A stretch of DNA of 64,000 nt, taken from contig CAVPZX010000002.1 of the NCBI GenBank assembly GCA_963710375.1, forward strand, positions 96,001-160,000, written 5' to 3'. Origin of the DNA: Nitrospirota bacterium. Lineage in GTDB: Bacteria; Nitrospirota; Thermodesulfovibrionia; Thermodesulfovibrionales; Dissulfurispiraceae. The translations under genes were made by a program, and so were the position numbers. The notes under the pieces were generated by a model, which did not search any database, was not told where the DNA came from, and worked only from the letters and a program-made list of their open reading frames with translations. The stretch's first letter is position 1. Each line of letters opens with the position of its first letter. This document shows positions 42,265-49,132 of the stretch, piece by piece.

Positions 42265-42512
42265 CACTCAGGACTCGCCGGCCCTTCCTCTCCTTTGATC
42301 ACTTTTTCAGCCAGCGCCTTGTCGGCCTGCGGCACCAGAATCCTAATCTCTCCGATCTTGCCTATGTTGACAGGAAAAGGGCTCACTTTCGAAGACCGCA
42401 ACACAACAGGTATCCCGCCGCTTTCCAGAAGGTCCTTGACCATCTCAGCCTCAACGGGATCGCACGTAACCAGCACATCCACCCACTCTTCACTTCCATC
42501 AGATCCCAGCAT
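42261..42512 (-). CDS. DUF2007-like small protein
   Basis: EAEMVKDLLESGGIPV...EIRILVP..D...A; start overlaps the upstream gene's end. Confidence 0.75.
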   Translation of the reverse strand: MLGSDGSEEWVDVLVTCDPVEAEMVKDLLESGGIPVVLRSSKVSPFPVNIGKIGEIRILVPQADKALAEKVIKGEEGPASPEC

Positions 42513-43275
42513 ACCACTCGTATCCTTGGTCTTCCCAGTACCCTCCCTTTCCGCCGGCGATCTTAGAGAAGCTTTCGACGATTTCCAGGCGGATAACATA
42601 CTTCGCGTGTTTGTATCCGAGCTGGCGCTCGACCCGTAAGCGTATCGGCGCACCATTGGCGAGAGGAAGATCCGTTCCGTTCAATTCGTACGCCAGAATG
42701 GTTTGCGGGTGGAATGCGTCCTCCATATCTATGCTCTCGTAGTAGGGAGAACTGCCGTCGTCATTCATCGGGTCGGCACAGTGAAAGACGACATAGCGGG
42801 CATTCGGTTTGAGTTGGACCTTTTCGAGCAGGGGCCCTAAACGCGCTCCCTTCCACTTGCCTATGGCGCTCCATCCCTCGACGCAATCGTGCCTCGTTAT
42901 CTGGGTGCGGCTAGGGAGCGCCCGTATCTCGGCGAGAGAAAACATGCCGGGCTTCTCGACCAAACCGTCAACGGCCAATCGATAATCTGCGAACCCGTTC
43001 TTCGCCATCGCCAAGAATGCCGGGTTGCTGGGCACTGAAGTCCCGTTGCTCCTGAACTTATGAGAAGGGTCCGTCTCAGAGAATTCCCGGACCATAGCCT
43101 TTCTTGGCAGAATCAGTCGCTGAGCGCCCAGGGTCATTTTCTCGCCAAAGCCCAGAATGTTGGGAAACCATGTCGTATCCGAAAGCTTCTGACAGCCGGC
43201 CAAGGCCATGGCTCCGACACCGGCAATCATCCGCGCCAGGAGTCCCCTGCGGTCGATCCCTGTTAAGTTACTCAT
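42499..43275 (-). CDS. Tat-exported molybdopterin oxidoreductase (sulfite-oxidase family, MsrP-like)
   Basis: DRRGLL twin-Arg signal, HDCVEGWS Mo-ligand Cys, HPQTILAY, GAPIRL, LGYKHAK, GGYWEDQGY. Confidence 0.9.
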   Translation of the reverse strand: MSNLTGIDRRGLLARMIAGVGAMALAGCQKLSDTTWFPNILGFGEKMTLGAQRLILPRKAMVREFSETDPSHKFRSNGTSVPSNPAFLAMAKNGFADYRLAVDGLVEKPGMFSLAEIRALPSRTQITRHDCVEGWSAIGKWKGARLGPLLEKVQLKPNARYVVFHCADPMNDDGSSPYYESIDMEDAFHPQTILAYELNGTDLPLANGAPIRLRVERQLGYKHAKYVIRLEIVESFSKIAGGKGGYWEDQGYEWYAGI

Positions 43276-44110
43276 TATCTGACTCCGGCGGAACTTTGAA
43301 ATACCCTGTAATCATAGATCGAACGTTATTCCAGAATCCATTGACAACGACTTCGAAGACATGGACGAACACGAATGCCACCAATGCCCAGGCGATGAGG
43401 AAATGGAGCGTTCTCATGGACTGCCTGCCTCCGAACAGGCTGACCAAACCGGGAAAGAGCGCGTCCAGAGCTGGTGACATGCCAAGCCCCATCAGGATCA
43501 TCGCGGGGGCCATCAGGAAGATCACGGAAAGATAGGCCATCTTCTGCAGTACATTGTAGCGAGTGGCTTCCTCCCCTTTCGGTCGCCGTAACAGTAGGTG
43601 ATCGACGACCGACCTGCCGATTGAATGCAACTCTTGACGGGTGGGCAATAGGCTCCGGGCGACATGTCGGATGAGCAAGGAGTAAGTCACAAAGGTGAAG
43701 CCATTTACCACCAGTAGCCAGGCAAAGAAAAAATGCCAACGCCGGGCCATGGCAAGCCATTGGACACTTGGTATTGTTATCCACGTCGGAAATCCCAGGT
43801 CTATCATGTCTCCATCCAGGTCCTTGGAAGCCCCTAGGAATCCGGTGGTATCCATTTTATAACCGAAGAGGCTTGTAGTCCCTATAAGTTTACCTTCATT
43901 ATCTTCCGCGCTGCGTATTTCAAGCAGTGGCGGGTTTTTCCCGTATGATGATTCTCCCCAGTAAAGTATCGAGTGTGCATTGAAGATGTTGAGGCCGCTC
44001 ATCAGAAGTACGACTAAGGCCGTGACATTGATCCAGTGCATAAGCCGCACAGGCAGAGGATGGCGGTACTGCATTTTTTTCCCGGGTAAGGTATCGTTCA
44101 GGTCTGCCAC
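43268..44110 (-). CDS. Cytochrome b membrane subunit (MsrQ-analogous partner)
   Basis: RLMHW, RRWHF, YNVLQK, RTLHF, HV His-ligand pattern; overlaps the oxidoreductase start. Confidence 0.88.
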   Translation of the reverse strand: MADLNDTLPGKKMQYRHPLPVRLMHWINVTALVVLLMSGLNIFNAHSILYWGESSYGKNPPLLEIRSAEDNEGKLIGTTSLFGYKMDTTGFLGASKDLDGDMIDLGFPTWITIPSVQWLAMARRWHFFFAWLLVVNGFTFVTYSLLIRHVARSLLPTRQELHSIGRSVVDHLLLRRPKGEEATRYNVLQKMAYLSVIFLMAPAMILMGLGMSPALDALFPGLVSLFGGRQSMRTLHFLIAWALVAFVFVHVFEVVVNGFWNNVRSMITGYFKVPPESDNE

Positions 44111-44275: not shown

Positions 44276-44761
44276 CTATCTTTTAAGCATGTTGGGCCAG
44301 TTCTCATCCGCCTTTTTGATATTTCCGGGAATGTCTTTGCTCCACTTGTCTCTTATTTTCTTACTGAGATTGAGGTAAAGCTTGCCGGCGACAATATTCC
44401 ACTCCTCGGGGTCAATATCAGCTGTGGTTCCGACACTTACTGCAAACGCGCAATAACCACCATATTTTGGCGCATACTTCTCAGGGTTCCTGATGAACAG
44501 ATCCCTGTTTTCGGCGCTTGCGAAATGCCATTTTGCACCCATCCAGATATATTCGAATTCTCCGTTTCCACTTACAGGTTTTCCATCAATAAAATAGGCC
44601 ACAGGATCATAACCCTTAACTGCCACCCCGTCAGAAGTTTTGTTGATAGGTTCTATTGCGGATGCGGGGCCTCCCGACTTTCCTGTGCAACCCGAAAAGA
44701 CGATACCGCCGGCTATGAGTCCGGTCAGCAAGAGCGCCAGTAATAAGGTTGTGTATTTCAT
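44276..44761 (-). CDS. YHS-domain exported protein/lipoprotein (Cys form)
   Basis: FSGC lipobox-like end of signal, GYDPVAYF, FASAENRDLF, P.YGGYCAFAV, KLYLN, ADENW. Confidence 0.88.
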   Translation of the reverse strand: MKYTTLLLALLLTGLIAGGIVFSGCTGKSGGPASAIEPINKTSDGVAVKGYDPVAYFIDGKPVSGNGEFEYIWMGAKWHFASAENRDLFIRNPEKYAPKYGGYCAFAVSVGTTADIDPEEWNIVAGKLYLNLSKKIRDKWSKDIPGNIKKADENWPNMLKR

Positions 44762-45063
44762 TTAACTGTTCCTGTGTAGGTACCGGCCTTCTTCAAGACC
44801 GTTTCCATTTCGCCAATCGTAATTACTGCCGGATCATAATAAACAGTGTTTATCTCTTTCAAGTAGCGAAAGCCTTTTTCAACTCTCTTCACTCCCTTCA
44901 GCCCTGCCAGGGCCTCCTTGCCGACATCGAATCATTTAACATTAAAGATCACCTTCGATGTTCCAGCATCTTGTGCGAAAGAAACACCATAACATAAAAA
45001 GACAAACAACATCAAAACAAAAAGAGTCAAAGACTGAGTGCTTCGGTTCTTCATATAATTCAT
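44758..45063 (-). CDS. Putative exported 101-aa selenoprotein, mini-MsrA/HMA-like (Sec at codon 44)
   Basis: Not in the ORF track. The frame is open except for TGA at 44932-44934; signal peptide; stop overlaps the YHS start (ATGA); GCCCT-GGC-AGGGC hairpin follows the TGA. Confidence 0.72.
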
Positions 45064-45155
45064 AGTTTTCACATCCCTTTATTGTTCACTTTGTTAACTC
45101 TGTCGTCTCTGCCCTTGAAGTAAGAAATCTTGTCTTTGACAAGACTCCGGTTAGC

Positions 45156-45204
45156 AAAAAAACCTATCAAGAGGGCACGTAATTTAGAGTGCCCTCTTGA
45201 TAGG
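45156..45204 (-). terminator. Rho-independent terminator after the Met-rich gene
   Basis: Perfect 16-bp stem (45163-45178 / 45189-45204) followed by T7 on the minus strand. Confidence 0.85.
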
Positions 45205-45261: not shown

Positions 45262-45588
45262 TTAGTTGTGAGGAAAAGGAAACAATAAGTCACGCATCTG
45301 CTCGCCCGTGTCCATCATCATCTTGCCGCAGTCCATCATTACCTTGGCCTGATTGCACATCATCTCGCCTTCTCGTTTCATTCCCTTTTCCATCATCATT
45401 TTGCCATTGTCCATCATCATCTGGCCCTTTTCCATCATCATCTGGCCATTGTCCATCATCATCTGGCCCTTTTCCATCATCACTTTTTTGTCCATCGTGT
45501 CGGCGGCTGAAACTAATCCGGTGCCTGCGGAAAGCATAAGACAGAAAAGAAATGCTATTGCTGCTATAGAACATACTATTTTCTTCAT
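45262..45588 (-). CDS. Secreted methionine-rich repeat protein
   Basis: RBS AGGAG, 28-aa signal peptide, MMM(E/D)(K/N)G(Q/K) heptads; 24 Met in 80 mature residues. Confidence 0.88.
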   Translation of the reverse strand: MKKIVCSIAAIAFLFCLMLSAGTGLVSAADTMDKKVMMEKGQMMMDNGQMMMEKGQMMMDNGKMMMEKGMKREGEMMCNQAKVMMDCGKMMMDTGEQMRDLLFPFPHN

Positions 45589-45871
45589 GTTGAACTCTCC
45601 TTTTGATTTTTTACGTTGATCAGATTCCCAAAATAATATTACCCTTATGGTCACGCTCCGCACTCTTATTCTGCTTCTTAATGTCCCCCATGTACACTTC
45701 CTTTAATACATAGTCGTTTATCACCTCGCTTTTCAACTTGTTACTGCATGAACTGTAAGCAGCCTAGCCAAACATCAAAAGCTAGTATGATTCCACTTTA
45801 GCTTGCTGCCTATGATGAATTTCACAACTGCGCCGTTTATTGCACGAAGCCCCACGTAACCAATTAGTTAT

Positions 45872-45985: not shown

Positions 45986-47464
45986 CTAAACCGTATAAAC
46001 CGGCAGGGTGAACGTGAAGGTCGTACCGGCGTTGACCACACTATCGACCTTAATATCACTTCCGTGGAGTTCCAGGATTCTCCTGGTGATGACCAGCCCA
46101 AGCCCCAAACCACCGGTGCCGCCTGCGTAGCTGCGGCCCATTCGATAACTGCGGTCGAATAAATACGGGAAATCCTCCGGCCGGATACCCGCGCCGGTAT
46201 CGGAAACTTGCACCTTTACTCGTCCGCTTTCGAAACCGGCGCTGACGGTAATCGAGCCGTTTTCCGGAGTGTACCTGGCGGCATTTTCGATGAGGTTTTC
46301 GAACACTCTCTCGATGAGTCCAATATCGGCGAACGCCAGCGGAAGGTGTTCAGGGAAGTTCTGTTGAAGCTTGATCTTTTTCTTCTCAGCAGCAAGCTGG
46401 AACTTCTGCATTATGTCCTGGACAAGTTCCGCCAGAGAAAAAGATTCGAGCCTGACCTGGACATCCGGCGAATCAAGTTTAGCCAGTTCAAAGAGTGCGG
46501 TAACCAACTTTCCTAATTGATTGGAACGCTTAATGGCAATTGTGAGAAAGTCCCGTTGCTCCTGCGGCGTCAACTTTCCTTCCTTCAAGAGCAAGGTCTC
46601 AAGGTATCCATGGAGAGACGTCAGAGGCGTTCGGAGGTCGTGTGTGATATTGGCTACTAATTCGCGCCGAAGCGCATCTGCTTGTCTGAGATTCTTTATC
46701 AGCTGAATAATGCGCTCAGCCATCTGAGAGAAGATCGATCCGAGACGGTCAATTTCATCCCCGGAACTGCCCTTAAAGAAAGGCAAAAAATCGGGATTGT
46801 CTGAAAAATCGCTCTGTCTGAAAGTTTCCATGTCAGCGGTAAGACGTTGGAGCCTACGTGTGATCAAGAAGAAGAGGAGAAGTCCAGTTAGTAAGGCAAA
46901 TAACAGGCTCCATGTCACAGCCCATATGCTTAACCGGATGATGTAACTGCCTTGGAGCATCTCTGCGACCGTTTCAAATTCCTCGCTGCCCAGAATGATG
47001 TAAAGATAACCTTGTATTTGATTTTTAACAAAGATTGGCGCCGCGGAGAACACCTTTTTACTTTTTAGGTTACGCGGGTCGTCACCCAGGATGGGAAACG
47101 CATCCGTCTTGTTCAGGAAACTTTTCAGGGGCACCATTGATACCTCCTGCCTTTTTACTTTTCCAAGAGGTGCGGAGAATGCCAGGATTGTGCCGTTTGG
47201 ATTGAGAAGATAGACCTCGATGTTTGGATTAACGATCATCAGCATATGGAAAATATCCTCAAGGGCTTTTTTATTGACCCGACCGTCCTTCATCAAGCTT
47301 GTCTCCGAAGTCAAGTTCTGAGCCAGAGTACGATTGAGCTTCTGGTCCACCTCCTGAAAATACAGCCGGGTGGTGTAGAGAGTGAACAGCATATAAAGGA
47401 TTCCGATCAGACAGAGCAACCCCAGCAGGACAACAGCCAGCTTGCAATAAAGGGTCTTGAACAT
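45986..47464 (-). CDS. HAMP-domain sensor histidine kinase
   Basis: Two TM segments, periplasmic domain, HAMP, ANITHDLRTPL, NLIENA, DTGAGI, GLGLGL. Confidence 0.95.
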   Translation of the reverse strand: MFKTLYCKLAVVLLGLLCLIGILYMLFTLYTTRLYFQEVDQKLNRTLAQNLTSETSLMKDGRVNKKALEDIFHMLMIVNPNIEVYLLNPNGTILAFSAPLGKVKRQEVSMVPLKSFLNKTDAFPILGDDPRNLKSKKVFSAAPIFVKNQIQGYLYIILGSEEFETVAEMLQGSYIIRLSIWAVTWSLLFALLTGLLLFFLITRRLQRLTADMETFRQSDFSDNPDFLPFFKGSSGDEIDRLGSIFSQMAERIIQLIKNLRQADALRRELVANITHDLRTPLTSLHGYLETLLLKEGKLTPQEQRDFLTIAIKRSNQLGKLVTALFELAKLDSPDVQVRLESFSLAELVQDIMQKFQLAAEKKKIKLQQNFPEHLPLAFADIGLIERVFENLIENAARYTPENGSITVSAGFESGRVKVQVSDTGAGIRPEDFPYLFDRSYRMGRSYAGGTGGLGLGLVITRRILELHGSDIKVDSVVNAGTTFTFTLPVYTV

Positions 47465-47468
47465 AAGA

Positions 47469-48182
47469 CTATTCCTTTTGGAAATCGGAGAACTTGTAAC
47501 CGATCCCCCAGACAGTCAAAATATAACGGGGCTTGGCAGGATCTTTTTCGATTTTTGCCCTTAATCGGTTGATGTGAGAATTCACGGTATGTTCGTAGCC
47601 TTCGTAGCCGTACACCCATACCTGTTTCAACAGTTCCATGCGTGTATATACCCTCCCGGGATGACTGACAAAGTGGAGCAGGAGGTCGAACTCTTTGGCT
47701 GTCAATAGCACCGGATTTCCCGAGAGCGTAACCTTCCGCTTTTCAGCATCTATAATAAGAGCACCTGTCTGAATCAGTTTCTGCGATTCCTGAGATGCCT
47801 CTGACTTAAGCGCCTCCACACGACGGAACAGCGCCTTGACCCGTGCCAGAAATTCGTGAATACTAAAGGGTTTGGTCAGGTAATCGTCTGCTCCGATCTC
47901 CAGGCCGAGTACACGGTCAACTTCAGAAGATCTGGACGACAGTATCAACATGGGGATATAGACAGATCCTGCCCTCACTCTCCGGCAGATCTCCAGCCCA
48001 TCTACCGCCGGGAGCGTAAGATCCAAAATAATCAGATCATAGGGTTCCGTGAGTGCATGGTCGAGACCGACGTCACCATCATAGGCAAGAGTTACTTCAT
48101 ATCCCATATCTTTCAGATGGAGCTCAACAAGATGGGCTATATCATTATCATCTTCAATTACAAGGATTCTGCGATGCTGCAT
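47469..48182 (-). CDS. OmpR/PhoB-family response regulator
   Basis: ILVIEDD, IILDLTLP, GADDYLTKPF, HINRLRAKIE, TVWGIGYKF. Confidence 0.95.
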   Translation of the reverse strand: MQHRRILVIEDDNDIAHLVELHLKDMGYEVTLAYDGDVGLDHALTEPYDLIILDLTLPAVDGLEICRRVRAGSVYIPMLILSSRSSEVDRVLGLEIGADDYLTKPFSIHEFLARVKALFRRVEALKSEASQESQKLIQTGALIIDAEKRKVTLSGNPVLLTAKEFDLLLHFVSHPGRVYTRMELLKQVWVYGYEGYEHTVNSHINRLRAKIEKDPAKPRYILTVWGIGYKFSDFQKE

Positions 48183-48263
48183 TTTTGCTCCATGAGCATT
48201 CATGCTGTCGTGATTTATATAAGCATAACATAATGGCATATCCCTAAATTGACATGAAACATC

Positions 48264-48319
48264 CGTGACCAAAAAGTTATCTTTCCGTGATAATTTTGTG
48301 ACTATCGAAATGTTATACT
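48264..48319 (+). promoter_or_regulatory. Four 11-bp-period direct repeats plus extended -10 (msrA promoter)
   Basis: CGTGAC-N5-AGTTAT-N5-CGTGAT-N5-TGTGAC-N8-TGtTATACT. Confidence 0.78.
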
Positions 48320-48328
48320 ACATAACAA

Positions 48329-49132
48329 TTGGTTAATGTCAAGTCCATTATTGCTTTTATAGTTCTTTGGGGGGTTGCAATAAGCGCTGCGACTCTTGTC
48401 TCTCTTGGAGGGGGTAAAAGTATGTCCATGCAACATAACGATACAGAGGCCTTTGTAGCTCAGCCACCCACAGGTCCATCTCTTACCGGTTCATTCGAAA
48501 CGGCTACCTTCGCCCTTGGCTGATTCTGGGGACCGGACTCCCAGTTTGGGAGTGTACCGGGGGTTGTCAGAACCCGAGTAGGATATGCCGGTGGAACTAC
48601 TAAAAATCCCACTTATCACAACTTGGGAGATCACTCCGAGGCGGTTCAAATTGATTTTAATCCCGCTCTCGTCTCATATAGGGAGCTGTTGGATATCTTT
48701 TGGAAGAGCCACAGCGCGACAAGCGGTTCCGGGTCTCGCCAATATAGGGCAGCAGTGTTTTATCACAACGAAAGACAGAGGAAACTTGCCGAAGAATCCC
48801 GAGATCATCTCGGAACGGAAACAGGACGCAGGATTGTGACAGCGATAGAGACCTATTCCGGGTTCCATTTGGCCGAGGACTACCACCAGAAGCACAGTCT
48901 GCGATTATTCCCCGAACTGATGGAGGAATTGAAAGCGCTTTATCCGGACATGAATAATTTTCTAAATTCTGTTGCCGTCACACGAATCAACGGTTACCTT
49001 GGAGGATACGGCACGTGCGACGCTCTCCAAATGGAAGTAGAGAGTTTCGGGCTTTCACCAAAGGCAAGAGAAAGATTGATTTCCGTTGTATGTGGCCGCA
49101 AAGCTTCAGTTACGTGTCCGATCCGGCAATAA
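48329..49132 (+). CDS. msrA: Selenocysteine-containing peptide methionine sulfoxide reductase A
   Basis: ORFs 48329..48523 and 48623..49132 share a frame: ATFALG-TGA-FWGPD...GVVRTRVGYAGG...HSEAVQ...QYR...AEDYHQK. Start is TTG 48329 (with TM segment) or ATG 48422 (with RBS). Confidence 0.92.
48533..48560 (+). promoter_or_regulatory. Candidate bacterial SECIS of msrA
   Basis: ACTCCCA-GTT-TGGGAGT stem-loop; the loop starts with G, 20 nt after the UGA. Confidence 0.65.

Follow-up and report, generated by a model that had tools for sequence, protein, structure and literature searches.

A probable small exported selenoprotein of an apparently unnamed family, linked by its gene neighbourhood to periplasmic methionine repair

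Periplasmic methionine sulfoxide reductase (Msr) systems are known as PilB with DsbD in Neisseria, as MsrAB with thioredoxin and CcdA in Haemophilus and Streptococcus, and as MrpX with YedY in Azospira; their exported Msr enzymes, Met-rich protein and dedicated regulator recur at the loci described here. MsrP-like enzymes use quinol rather than thiols. Where exported MsrABs have been characterised, their recycling depends on a thioredoxin-like partner, itself fed by CcdA or DsbD (PMC13488963; PMC6210582). Unlike these systems, most loci of the present family contain no linked thioredoxin or CcdA gene and encode a small selenocysteine (Sec)- or Cys-containing protein instead.

The window, meaning the whole stretch of 64,000 nucleotides that was analysed from a Nitrospirota genome (G000), contains such a gene on the minus strand (45063..44758), with a single internal TGA at codon 44 (44934-44932). 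A sequence-only reading had proposed its product as an exported mini-selenoprotein; the translation given there, which came with no strand, agrees letter for letter once the minus strand is read. The gene has the following features.

44758..45063, minus strand: coding sequence of the 101-residue predicted selenoprotein precursor, stop codon included (sequence and relatives)
44974..45063, minus strand: predicted Sec-type signal peptide, residues 1-30, with a basic start, a hydrophobic core and cleavage after Ala30 (judged from the sequence)
44761..44973, minus strand: mature 71-residue domain, predicted beta-alpha-beta-beta-alpha-beta, ferredoxin-like and HMA-like (model)
44932..44934, minus strand: in-frame TGA, codon 44, putative selenocysteine, just before helix 1 in the model (conservation, model, reads)
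44900..44914, minus strand: SECIS-type hairpin with a 5-6 bp stem and a 3-nt G-led loop, 23 nt after the TGA (codon fixation)
45074..45079, minus strand: purine-rich, ribosome-binding-like site before the ATG, similar in close relatives (sequence)
45156..45204, minus strand: 16-bp inverted repeat followed by a T run, terminator-like, between the Met-rich gene and the mini-selenoprotein gene (by eye)
44276..44761, minus strand: exported YHS-domain protein, Cys form, whose start overlaps the mini-selenoprotein stop (NF041384, 168.7 bits, cut-off 70)

The overlap of the terminal TGA with the ATG of the YHS gene had been noticed earlier and is evident in the sequence; this TGA is regarded as a true stop because TAG or TAA is the stop codon there in the majority of relatives. 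The terminator-like repeat was not listed by the inverted-repeat scan, the loop limit of which is 8 nt, and inspection by eye showed no promoter motif common to the family genes, whose upstream context varies. The internal TGA is not an assembly error, since the whole gene is covered, without one mismatch, by short-read contigs of three runs: X1, the possible source run, X4 and, from another study, X5. A sense codon in the reads had been named as a ground for rejecting the proposal, and the contigs of all three runs carry TGA. In X5 a related contig shows 20 differences over 139 positions, and those listed all lie outside the TGA.

Scanning of genome contigs yielded 49 loci; after exclusion of one in which the codon was not reached and of one spurious second alignment, 48 loci with 49 copies were retained, of which L046 appears to carry a frameshift and L048 is truncated where its contig ends. 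Among the hosts that have a name, Nitrospirota are the closest (85-87% identical); the others are Desulfobacterota-type deltaproteobacteria and a single Planctomycetota MAG. At codon 44, 47 of the 49 copies have TGA, one TGT, one CGA and none TGG, counts which overstate independence as the family loci are related to one another. Homologues with TGA or Cys at residue 44 and conservation on both sides, which the sequence-only reading had set as a check, were thus found, and the lack of conservation downstream of the TGA that would have spoken against it was not: the 56 residues after the TGA are on average 75% identical to those of the window gene (44 loci), and third codon positions hold 986 of the 1718 downstream differences.

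Protein databases present a more mixed picture of the site, with Trp in 44, Cys in 12, Arg in two and Gly in one of 67 relatives, the residue being absent from eight. As TGG does not occur in the genomic copies, these Trp residues are presumably TGA codons of short contigs that were read under another code. Among the best 150 of 229 representative matches, 80 have a residue at the site (48 Cys, 28 Trp and 4 other); Arg, Ser, Val or Gly is found in L007, in P0006 (5 members) and in those four of 80. Trp, Arg or Gly at this codon had also been named as evidence against a selenoprotein; the genomic copies supply no Trp codon, while a few relatives do have Arg or Gly and the database proteins do show Trp. 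A further 80 Cys-form loci were fetched from metagenomes with a Cys-specific pattern and therefore all have TGT or TGC by construction. In a quick, poorly resolved tree of 67 columns the Sec forms cluster, with 3-4 changes of label, and may have had a single origin.

The hairpin at 44914-44900 was also described correctly at the outset, its 3-nt loop beginning 23 nt after the TGA. In PMC13188914, bacterial SECIS elements are given a stem of 4-16 bp and a loop of 3-9 nt with G in first or second place, located 16-37 nt after the UGA, and the window hairpin lies within these limits of stem, loop and spacing. An intact stem with a G-led loop is present in 41 of 48 TGA genes, the window gene included, whereas 2000 synonymous resamplings gave 1.2 on average and never more than 6; the genes are related and hence not independent events. 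Only 2 of the 80 Cys genes have such a stem and loop. The codons that form the hairpin are nearly fixed in the TGA genes (GCC in 47/48, CTG in 48/48 and GGG in 41/48), even though these genes otherwise use GGG less than any other Gly codon (12/127). In one gene (L044) each arm of the stem is changed once. Folding energy was no better than that of shuffled sequences (z from -0.46 to +0.45 for three stretches), so that support for the hairpin comes from codon fixation and not from energy.

The G000 genome encodes tRNA-Sec, SelB and a TGA-containing SelD, but selA is absent from the assembly, where SepSecS was likewise not found. Among 41 relatives, 35 were found to have selA, as were 40 of the 45 genomes in which the mini-selenoprotein gene occurs. 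In three congeners selA shares a block with folD and folE, and the block of selA, folD, folE and rsmG is missing from G000 despite a completeness of 98.76%. When the X1 reads were compared with the block of a congener, they gave contigs about 88% identical to selA at a depth of 15.5-17.4, compared with 15.7 for the window; agreement was similar in X4 and X5, and X13, a run without the window, gave only short scraps of the block. The missing selA is therefore probably an assembly gap, which the matching depth fits without proving it.

It is hardly credible that the TGA is a stop, in a pseudogene or through error, or is read as Trp. The 44 database proteins with Trp and the absence of selA from the assembly would favour such a reading; they are outweighed by the lack of TGG in genomic copies, the conservation beyond the TGA, the hairpin, the agreement of the reads and the presence in these samples of a selA block whose depth is like that of the window. 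The gene very probably encodes a selenoprotein, and we infer that Sec is inserted at codon 44.

The signal-peptide-like N-terminus proposed earlier is borne out by the relatives, a hydrophobic stretch being present in all 125 related genes scored and Ala at the position matching Ala30 in 74 of them; the protein is predicted to be exported and cleaved after this residue. The mature part contains no other Cys, as had been claimed, and a second Cys is missing from 124 of the 125 related genes. The model of the mature 71 residues, predicted with 95 sequences (pLDDT 95.5), has a beta-alpha-beta-beta-alpha-beta order with Sec just before helix 1. The comparison with MsrA and HMA structures suggested by the sequence-only reading placed HMA/MerP as the closest predicted fold: Foldseek ranked MerP first (TM 0.78), with MsrA at TM 0.69-0.72 by query length, and the VIA structural comparison gave MerP a Z of 11.0 and an rmsd of 1.6 over 66 residues, MsrA not being among the 50 VIA entries listed, an absence that does not speak against a match to it. 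MerP was also the best sequence match in the PDB (E 6e-4); a single-sequence search of the PDB returned chance matches only, and a search of the ESM Atlas only leads under 0.9.

These likenesses would suit a metal binder of the MerP/CopZ type, which would hold Cu(I), Ag or Hg with its single Sec or Cys, possibly in dimeric form, and would thereby shield thiol enzymes; some members have indeed been automatically named 'copper chaperone CopZ'. Such a role is nevertheless rather improbable, as neither the GMxCxxC metal-binding loop of HMA proteins nor a second ligand is present, the only Sec or Cys standing alone. The HMA profile aligned at 96.8% over 45 columns that exclude the Sec position, and metal-transport motifs were found in just 2 of 1128 neighbouring ORFs from 128 loci (one HMA motif and one P-type ATPase motif).

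The alignment with the MsrA profile (HHalign, 97.2% over 56 columns; both this and the HMA profile were built from sequences gathered in this analysis) places Sec on the catalytic Cys with no gap there and a 17-residue gap elsewhere. Residues of the MsrA pocket are given here by what we take to be their E. coli numbers. MsrA needs the GCFWG motif, Phe52, Trp53, Tyr82, Glu94 and Tyr134 (PMC8417374). Counterparts in the mini-selenoprotein are limited to the catalytic Cys (as Sec), the aromatic residue and the Glu, an invariant residue aligned to the Glu of GHAE; the family motif x-U/C-F/Y-D-V/E-G replaces the MsrA G-C/U-F-W-G, Asp stands in the position of Trp53, the loop with the conserved Tyr falls in the 17-residue gap and the C-terminal half is absent. 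The resemblance to MsrA and HMA seen by the sequence-only reading is consequently real, but membership of MsrA is not, GCFWG, Trp53 and the Tyr82 loop being absent. The protein belongs to neither family because it has neither the HMA CxxC nor most of the MsrA substrate pocket. Judged from these residues it is unlikely to work alone as an MsrA, and a minimal MsrA-like sulfoxide reductase, acting by itself or with a partner such as the YHS protein, is improbable: the register of Sec, the Phe or Tyr next to it and the invariant Glu speak for it, and the substituted Trp53 position, the deleted Tyr loop, the missing C-terminal half and the intact msrA that is usually next door speak against it. Longer fused forms were not found among 7993 candidates, which is weak evidence.

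In one of the 80 Cys loci (L104:1909-3345, plus strand) a Cys member is fused in frame to MsrAB with its internal signal peptide kept, representing either a real fusion or a lost stop codon.

Comparison with curated protein and selenoprotein models returned no Pfam match and no NCBIfam model (release 20) at its cut-off. The closest model, NF041383 (VPGUxxT thioredoxin-like selenoprotein type 2, OS_HP5), scored 31.4 bits against a cut-off of 275 and over its positions 141-203 only. Each of the 44 Cys-form members that were tested matches the model at positions 141-204, whereas its thioredoxin domain and its VPGU motif, the site of its Sec, are absent from the mini-selenoprotein; no members of NF041383 above cut-off were found in 5 genomes. 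NF041115 (UxxU metal-binding) likewise describes a small HMA-like selenoprotein and matches 31 of the 44 members weakly (23.5 bits against a cut-off of 95 for the window protein), but its UxxU is absent, the mini-selenoprotein having one Sec. The MsrA models PF01625 and TIGR00401, which include Sec forms, did not match the window protein and matched 3 of 44 members weakly (best E 0.0047); the first strand and helix are in register with MsrA, with Sec or Cys on the catalytic Cys and Phe or Tyr next, while MsrA has about 150 residues compared with 71, and GCFWG, the active-site loop and the C-terminal half are its own. PF00403 and the MerP/CopZ models gave nothing above cut-off for the window protein. 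The MerP/CopZ proteins (PF00403, TIGR02052) are of the same size and predicted fold, and MerP is also exported, yet their GMxCxxC and metal-transport neighbourhood are replaced here by a single Sec and an Msr neighbourhood.

No entry in the whole table of 119 prokaryotic selenoprotein families (PMC13188914) fits the protein by name, domain or motif, the terms in which the comparison was made, and a literature search aimed at the mini-selenoprotein gave no match. At least 15 unnamed TGA candidates are mentioned for the symbionts of Olavius (PMC1976440); since one of the present loci (L042) is from an Olavius symbiont, the gene may have been seen there without being described. The suggestion of an undescribed selenoprotein family can thus be kept in the form that the family is apparently unnamed.

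The neighbouring genes provide the strongest connection with methionine repair. In the window the mini-selenoprotein gene is in line with the genes of the YHS protein, a cytochrome b and an MsrP-like enzyme, and msrA lies 3.4 kb off on the other strand.

43268..44110, minus strand: cytochrome b561-type membrane subunit (PF01292)
42499..43275, minus strand: molybdopterin oxidoreductase, MsrP/sulfite-oxidase-like (PF00174; best NCBIfam model NF003767, MsrP, 97 bits, cut-off 207)
45262..45663, minus strand: Met-rich repeat protein with a signal-peptide-like start and MrpX-like composition (sequence; no Pfam or NCBIfam match)
45986..48272, minus strand: OmpR-type response regulator and histidine kinase, the kinase at 45986-47464 (domains; conserved periplasmic Met)
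48329..49132, plus strand: divergent MsrA with an in-frame TGA at the catalytic position, 48521-48523 (sequence, Pfam and NCBIfam)

MsrA, MsrB or an MsrP-like enzyme is encoded at 36 of the 49 genome loci (at 23 if only the 27 with long flanks are counted) and at 67 of 80 Cys loci, and msrA or msrB is found on the same strand within 1.5 kb in 19/48 and 67/80, respectively; as a background, 1.7% of G000 lies within 6 kb of an MsrA, MsrB or MsrP-like gene. In the remaining 13 of the 49 genome loci no Msr gene was present. The Msr connection, which the sequence-only reading had sought in the protein itself as an MsrA core, is strongest as a gene neighbourhood, a kind of evidence lacking in that reading, and does not extend to MsrA membership. 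A hydrophobic segment opens most of the neighbouring Msr proteins. Cys is missing, in all 64 MsrB motifs read, from what we take to be the position of the resolving Cys, and of the 31 MsrAB fusions that are complete, 17 contain just three Cys in total. With one query used, CcdA was found in 0 of 129 loci; thioredoxin or redoxin occurs in 7 of 129, and G000 has CcdA and several redoxins elsewhere. About 10 of the 49 loci encode a VTT membrane protein together with a flavin disulfide oxidoreductase.

Several other genes came to light at these loci or elsewhere in the genomes. The MsrA gene of the window (48329-49132), which had been split by the ORF track, has a hairpin after its TGA, an N-terminal hydrophobic segment and a weak PF20939 match, and is of a known selenoprotein type. 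Less than 4 kb from the tRNA-Sec gene, G000:C4:275552-279370 encodes another exported MsrA and, after it, a flavin disulfide oxidoreductase; G000:C5:469021-469461 is a redoxin gene with an in-frame TGA. In L001, L003 and L016 the gene adjoins UGSC-family and DUF1573 genes, both known selenoprotein families, and the YHS neighbour in L025 carries TGA at the site of the Cys that is found in the other nine motif matches. The plus strand of L065:1507-1818 (G013) encodes an exported MerP-like protein of another kind, whose one in-frame TGA occupies a UxxT-like position; it was below cut-off in all 13 NCBIfam models matched and is possibly another unnamed selenoprotein. A similar weak TGA-containing match is found at G025:C15:34636-34911.

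A histidine kinase gene is present in 21 of 49 genome loci and 45 of 80 Cys loci, often directly upstream, and the subfamily of the window kinase in 24 loci. These frequencies would fit a periplasmic redox-sensing accessory of the adjacent kinase, which would control the Msr genes. This is quite improbable, given that many loci contain no kinase and that the kinase's own conserved periplasmic Met could sense the oxidant: among 25 aligned relatives Met76 is conserved in 24 and Met74 in 21, which suggests that the periplasmic Met residues of the kinase serve in oxidant sensing. HprS offers an analogy for Met-based oxidant sensing by a kinase.

Met-rich neighbours, of which the window has one and which also occur in 7 of 49 loci, bear on another reading, that of an oxidant sink, in which the exposed selenol or thiol would be attacked directly by periplasmic HOCl, chlorite or peroxide and then be recycled or discarded, acting beside the Met-rich scavengers and not in the service of Msr enzymes. 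Either MsrA/B or MsrP-like genes as neighbours would agree with this, and MrpX with YedY (PMC4436054) provides a precedent. We regard such a sink as unlikely, though less so than the metal binder, because the protein has no peroxiredoxin or glutathione-peroxidase fold or motif, its strongly conserved surface suggests a specific partner and the Cys branch is tied almost exclusively to msrA/msrB (67/80).

The mini-selenoprotein probably belongs to the periplasmic defence against methionine oxidation. An exported protein with one selenol beside an exported Msr that is short of a resolving Cys would have, as its simplest role, resolution in trans; we tentatively propose, somewhat against the balance of chances, a single-selenol partner which resolves the oxidised catalytic Cys of periplasmic MsrA/MsrB. 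The selenolate would attack the sulfenic acid or disulfide of Msr, and the mixed Se-S bond formed in this way would have to be resolved by another thiol or selenol; the VTT protein with the flavin disulfide oxidoreductase is a candidate electron source for this relay. The relay is weakened by the absence of a thioredoxin fold and by the single redox residue, which do not account for an ultimate electron source. About a dozen loci hold only the quinol-using MsrP-like enzyme and 13 of 49 no Msr gene, the window gene runs in line with the MsrP-like gene and at a distance from msrA, and the CcdA and redoxins that G000 encodes elsewhere could do the recycling. A predicted complex of a natural Cys member with the neighbouring MsrAB (L082) scored 0.00 against a mark of 0.32 and is evidence neither for nor against the relay. 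More doubtful is the combined proposal that the protein is a thioredoxin-independent single-selenol recycling partner and also a stand-alone form of the ferredoxin-like core common to HMA and MsrA, with the MsrA catalytic position kept.

Taken as a family, these genes encode a real, apparently unnamed type of selenoprotein tied to periplasmic methionine repair, with a function that we infer. New selenoprotein families appear in reports regularly; the present one would join the 119 catalogued in prokaryotes, and its genes are missed, truncated or given a Trp by gene callers. The present clusters, which mostly lack DsbD, CcdA or thioredoxin-like genes and encode this protein in their place, offer a direct test of alternative recycling, for which the natural Cys forms are easy to express and assay. 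If the combined proposal is true, the family would represent a new way to power the repair of proteins outside the cytoplasm and a living link between HMA and MsrA.
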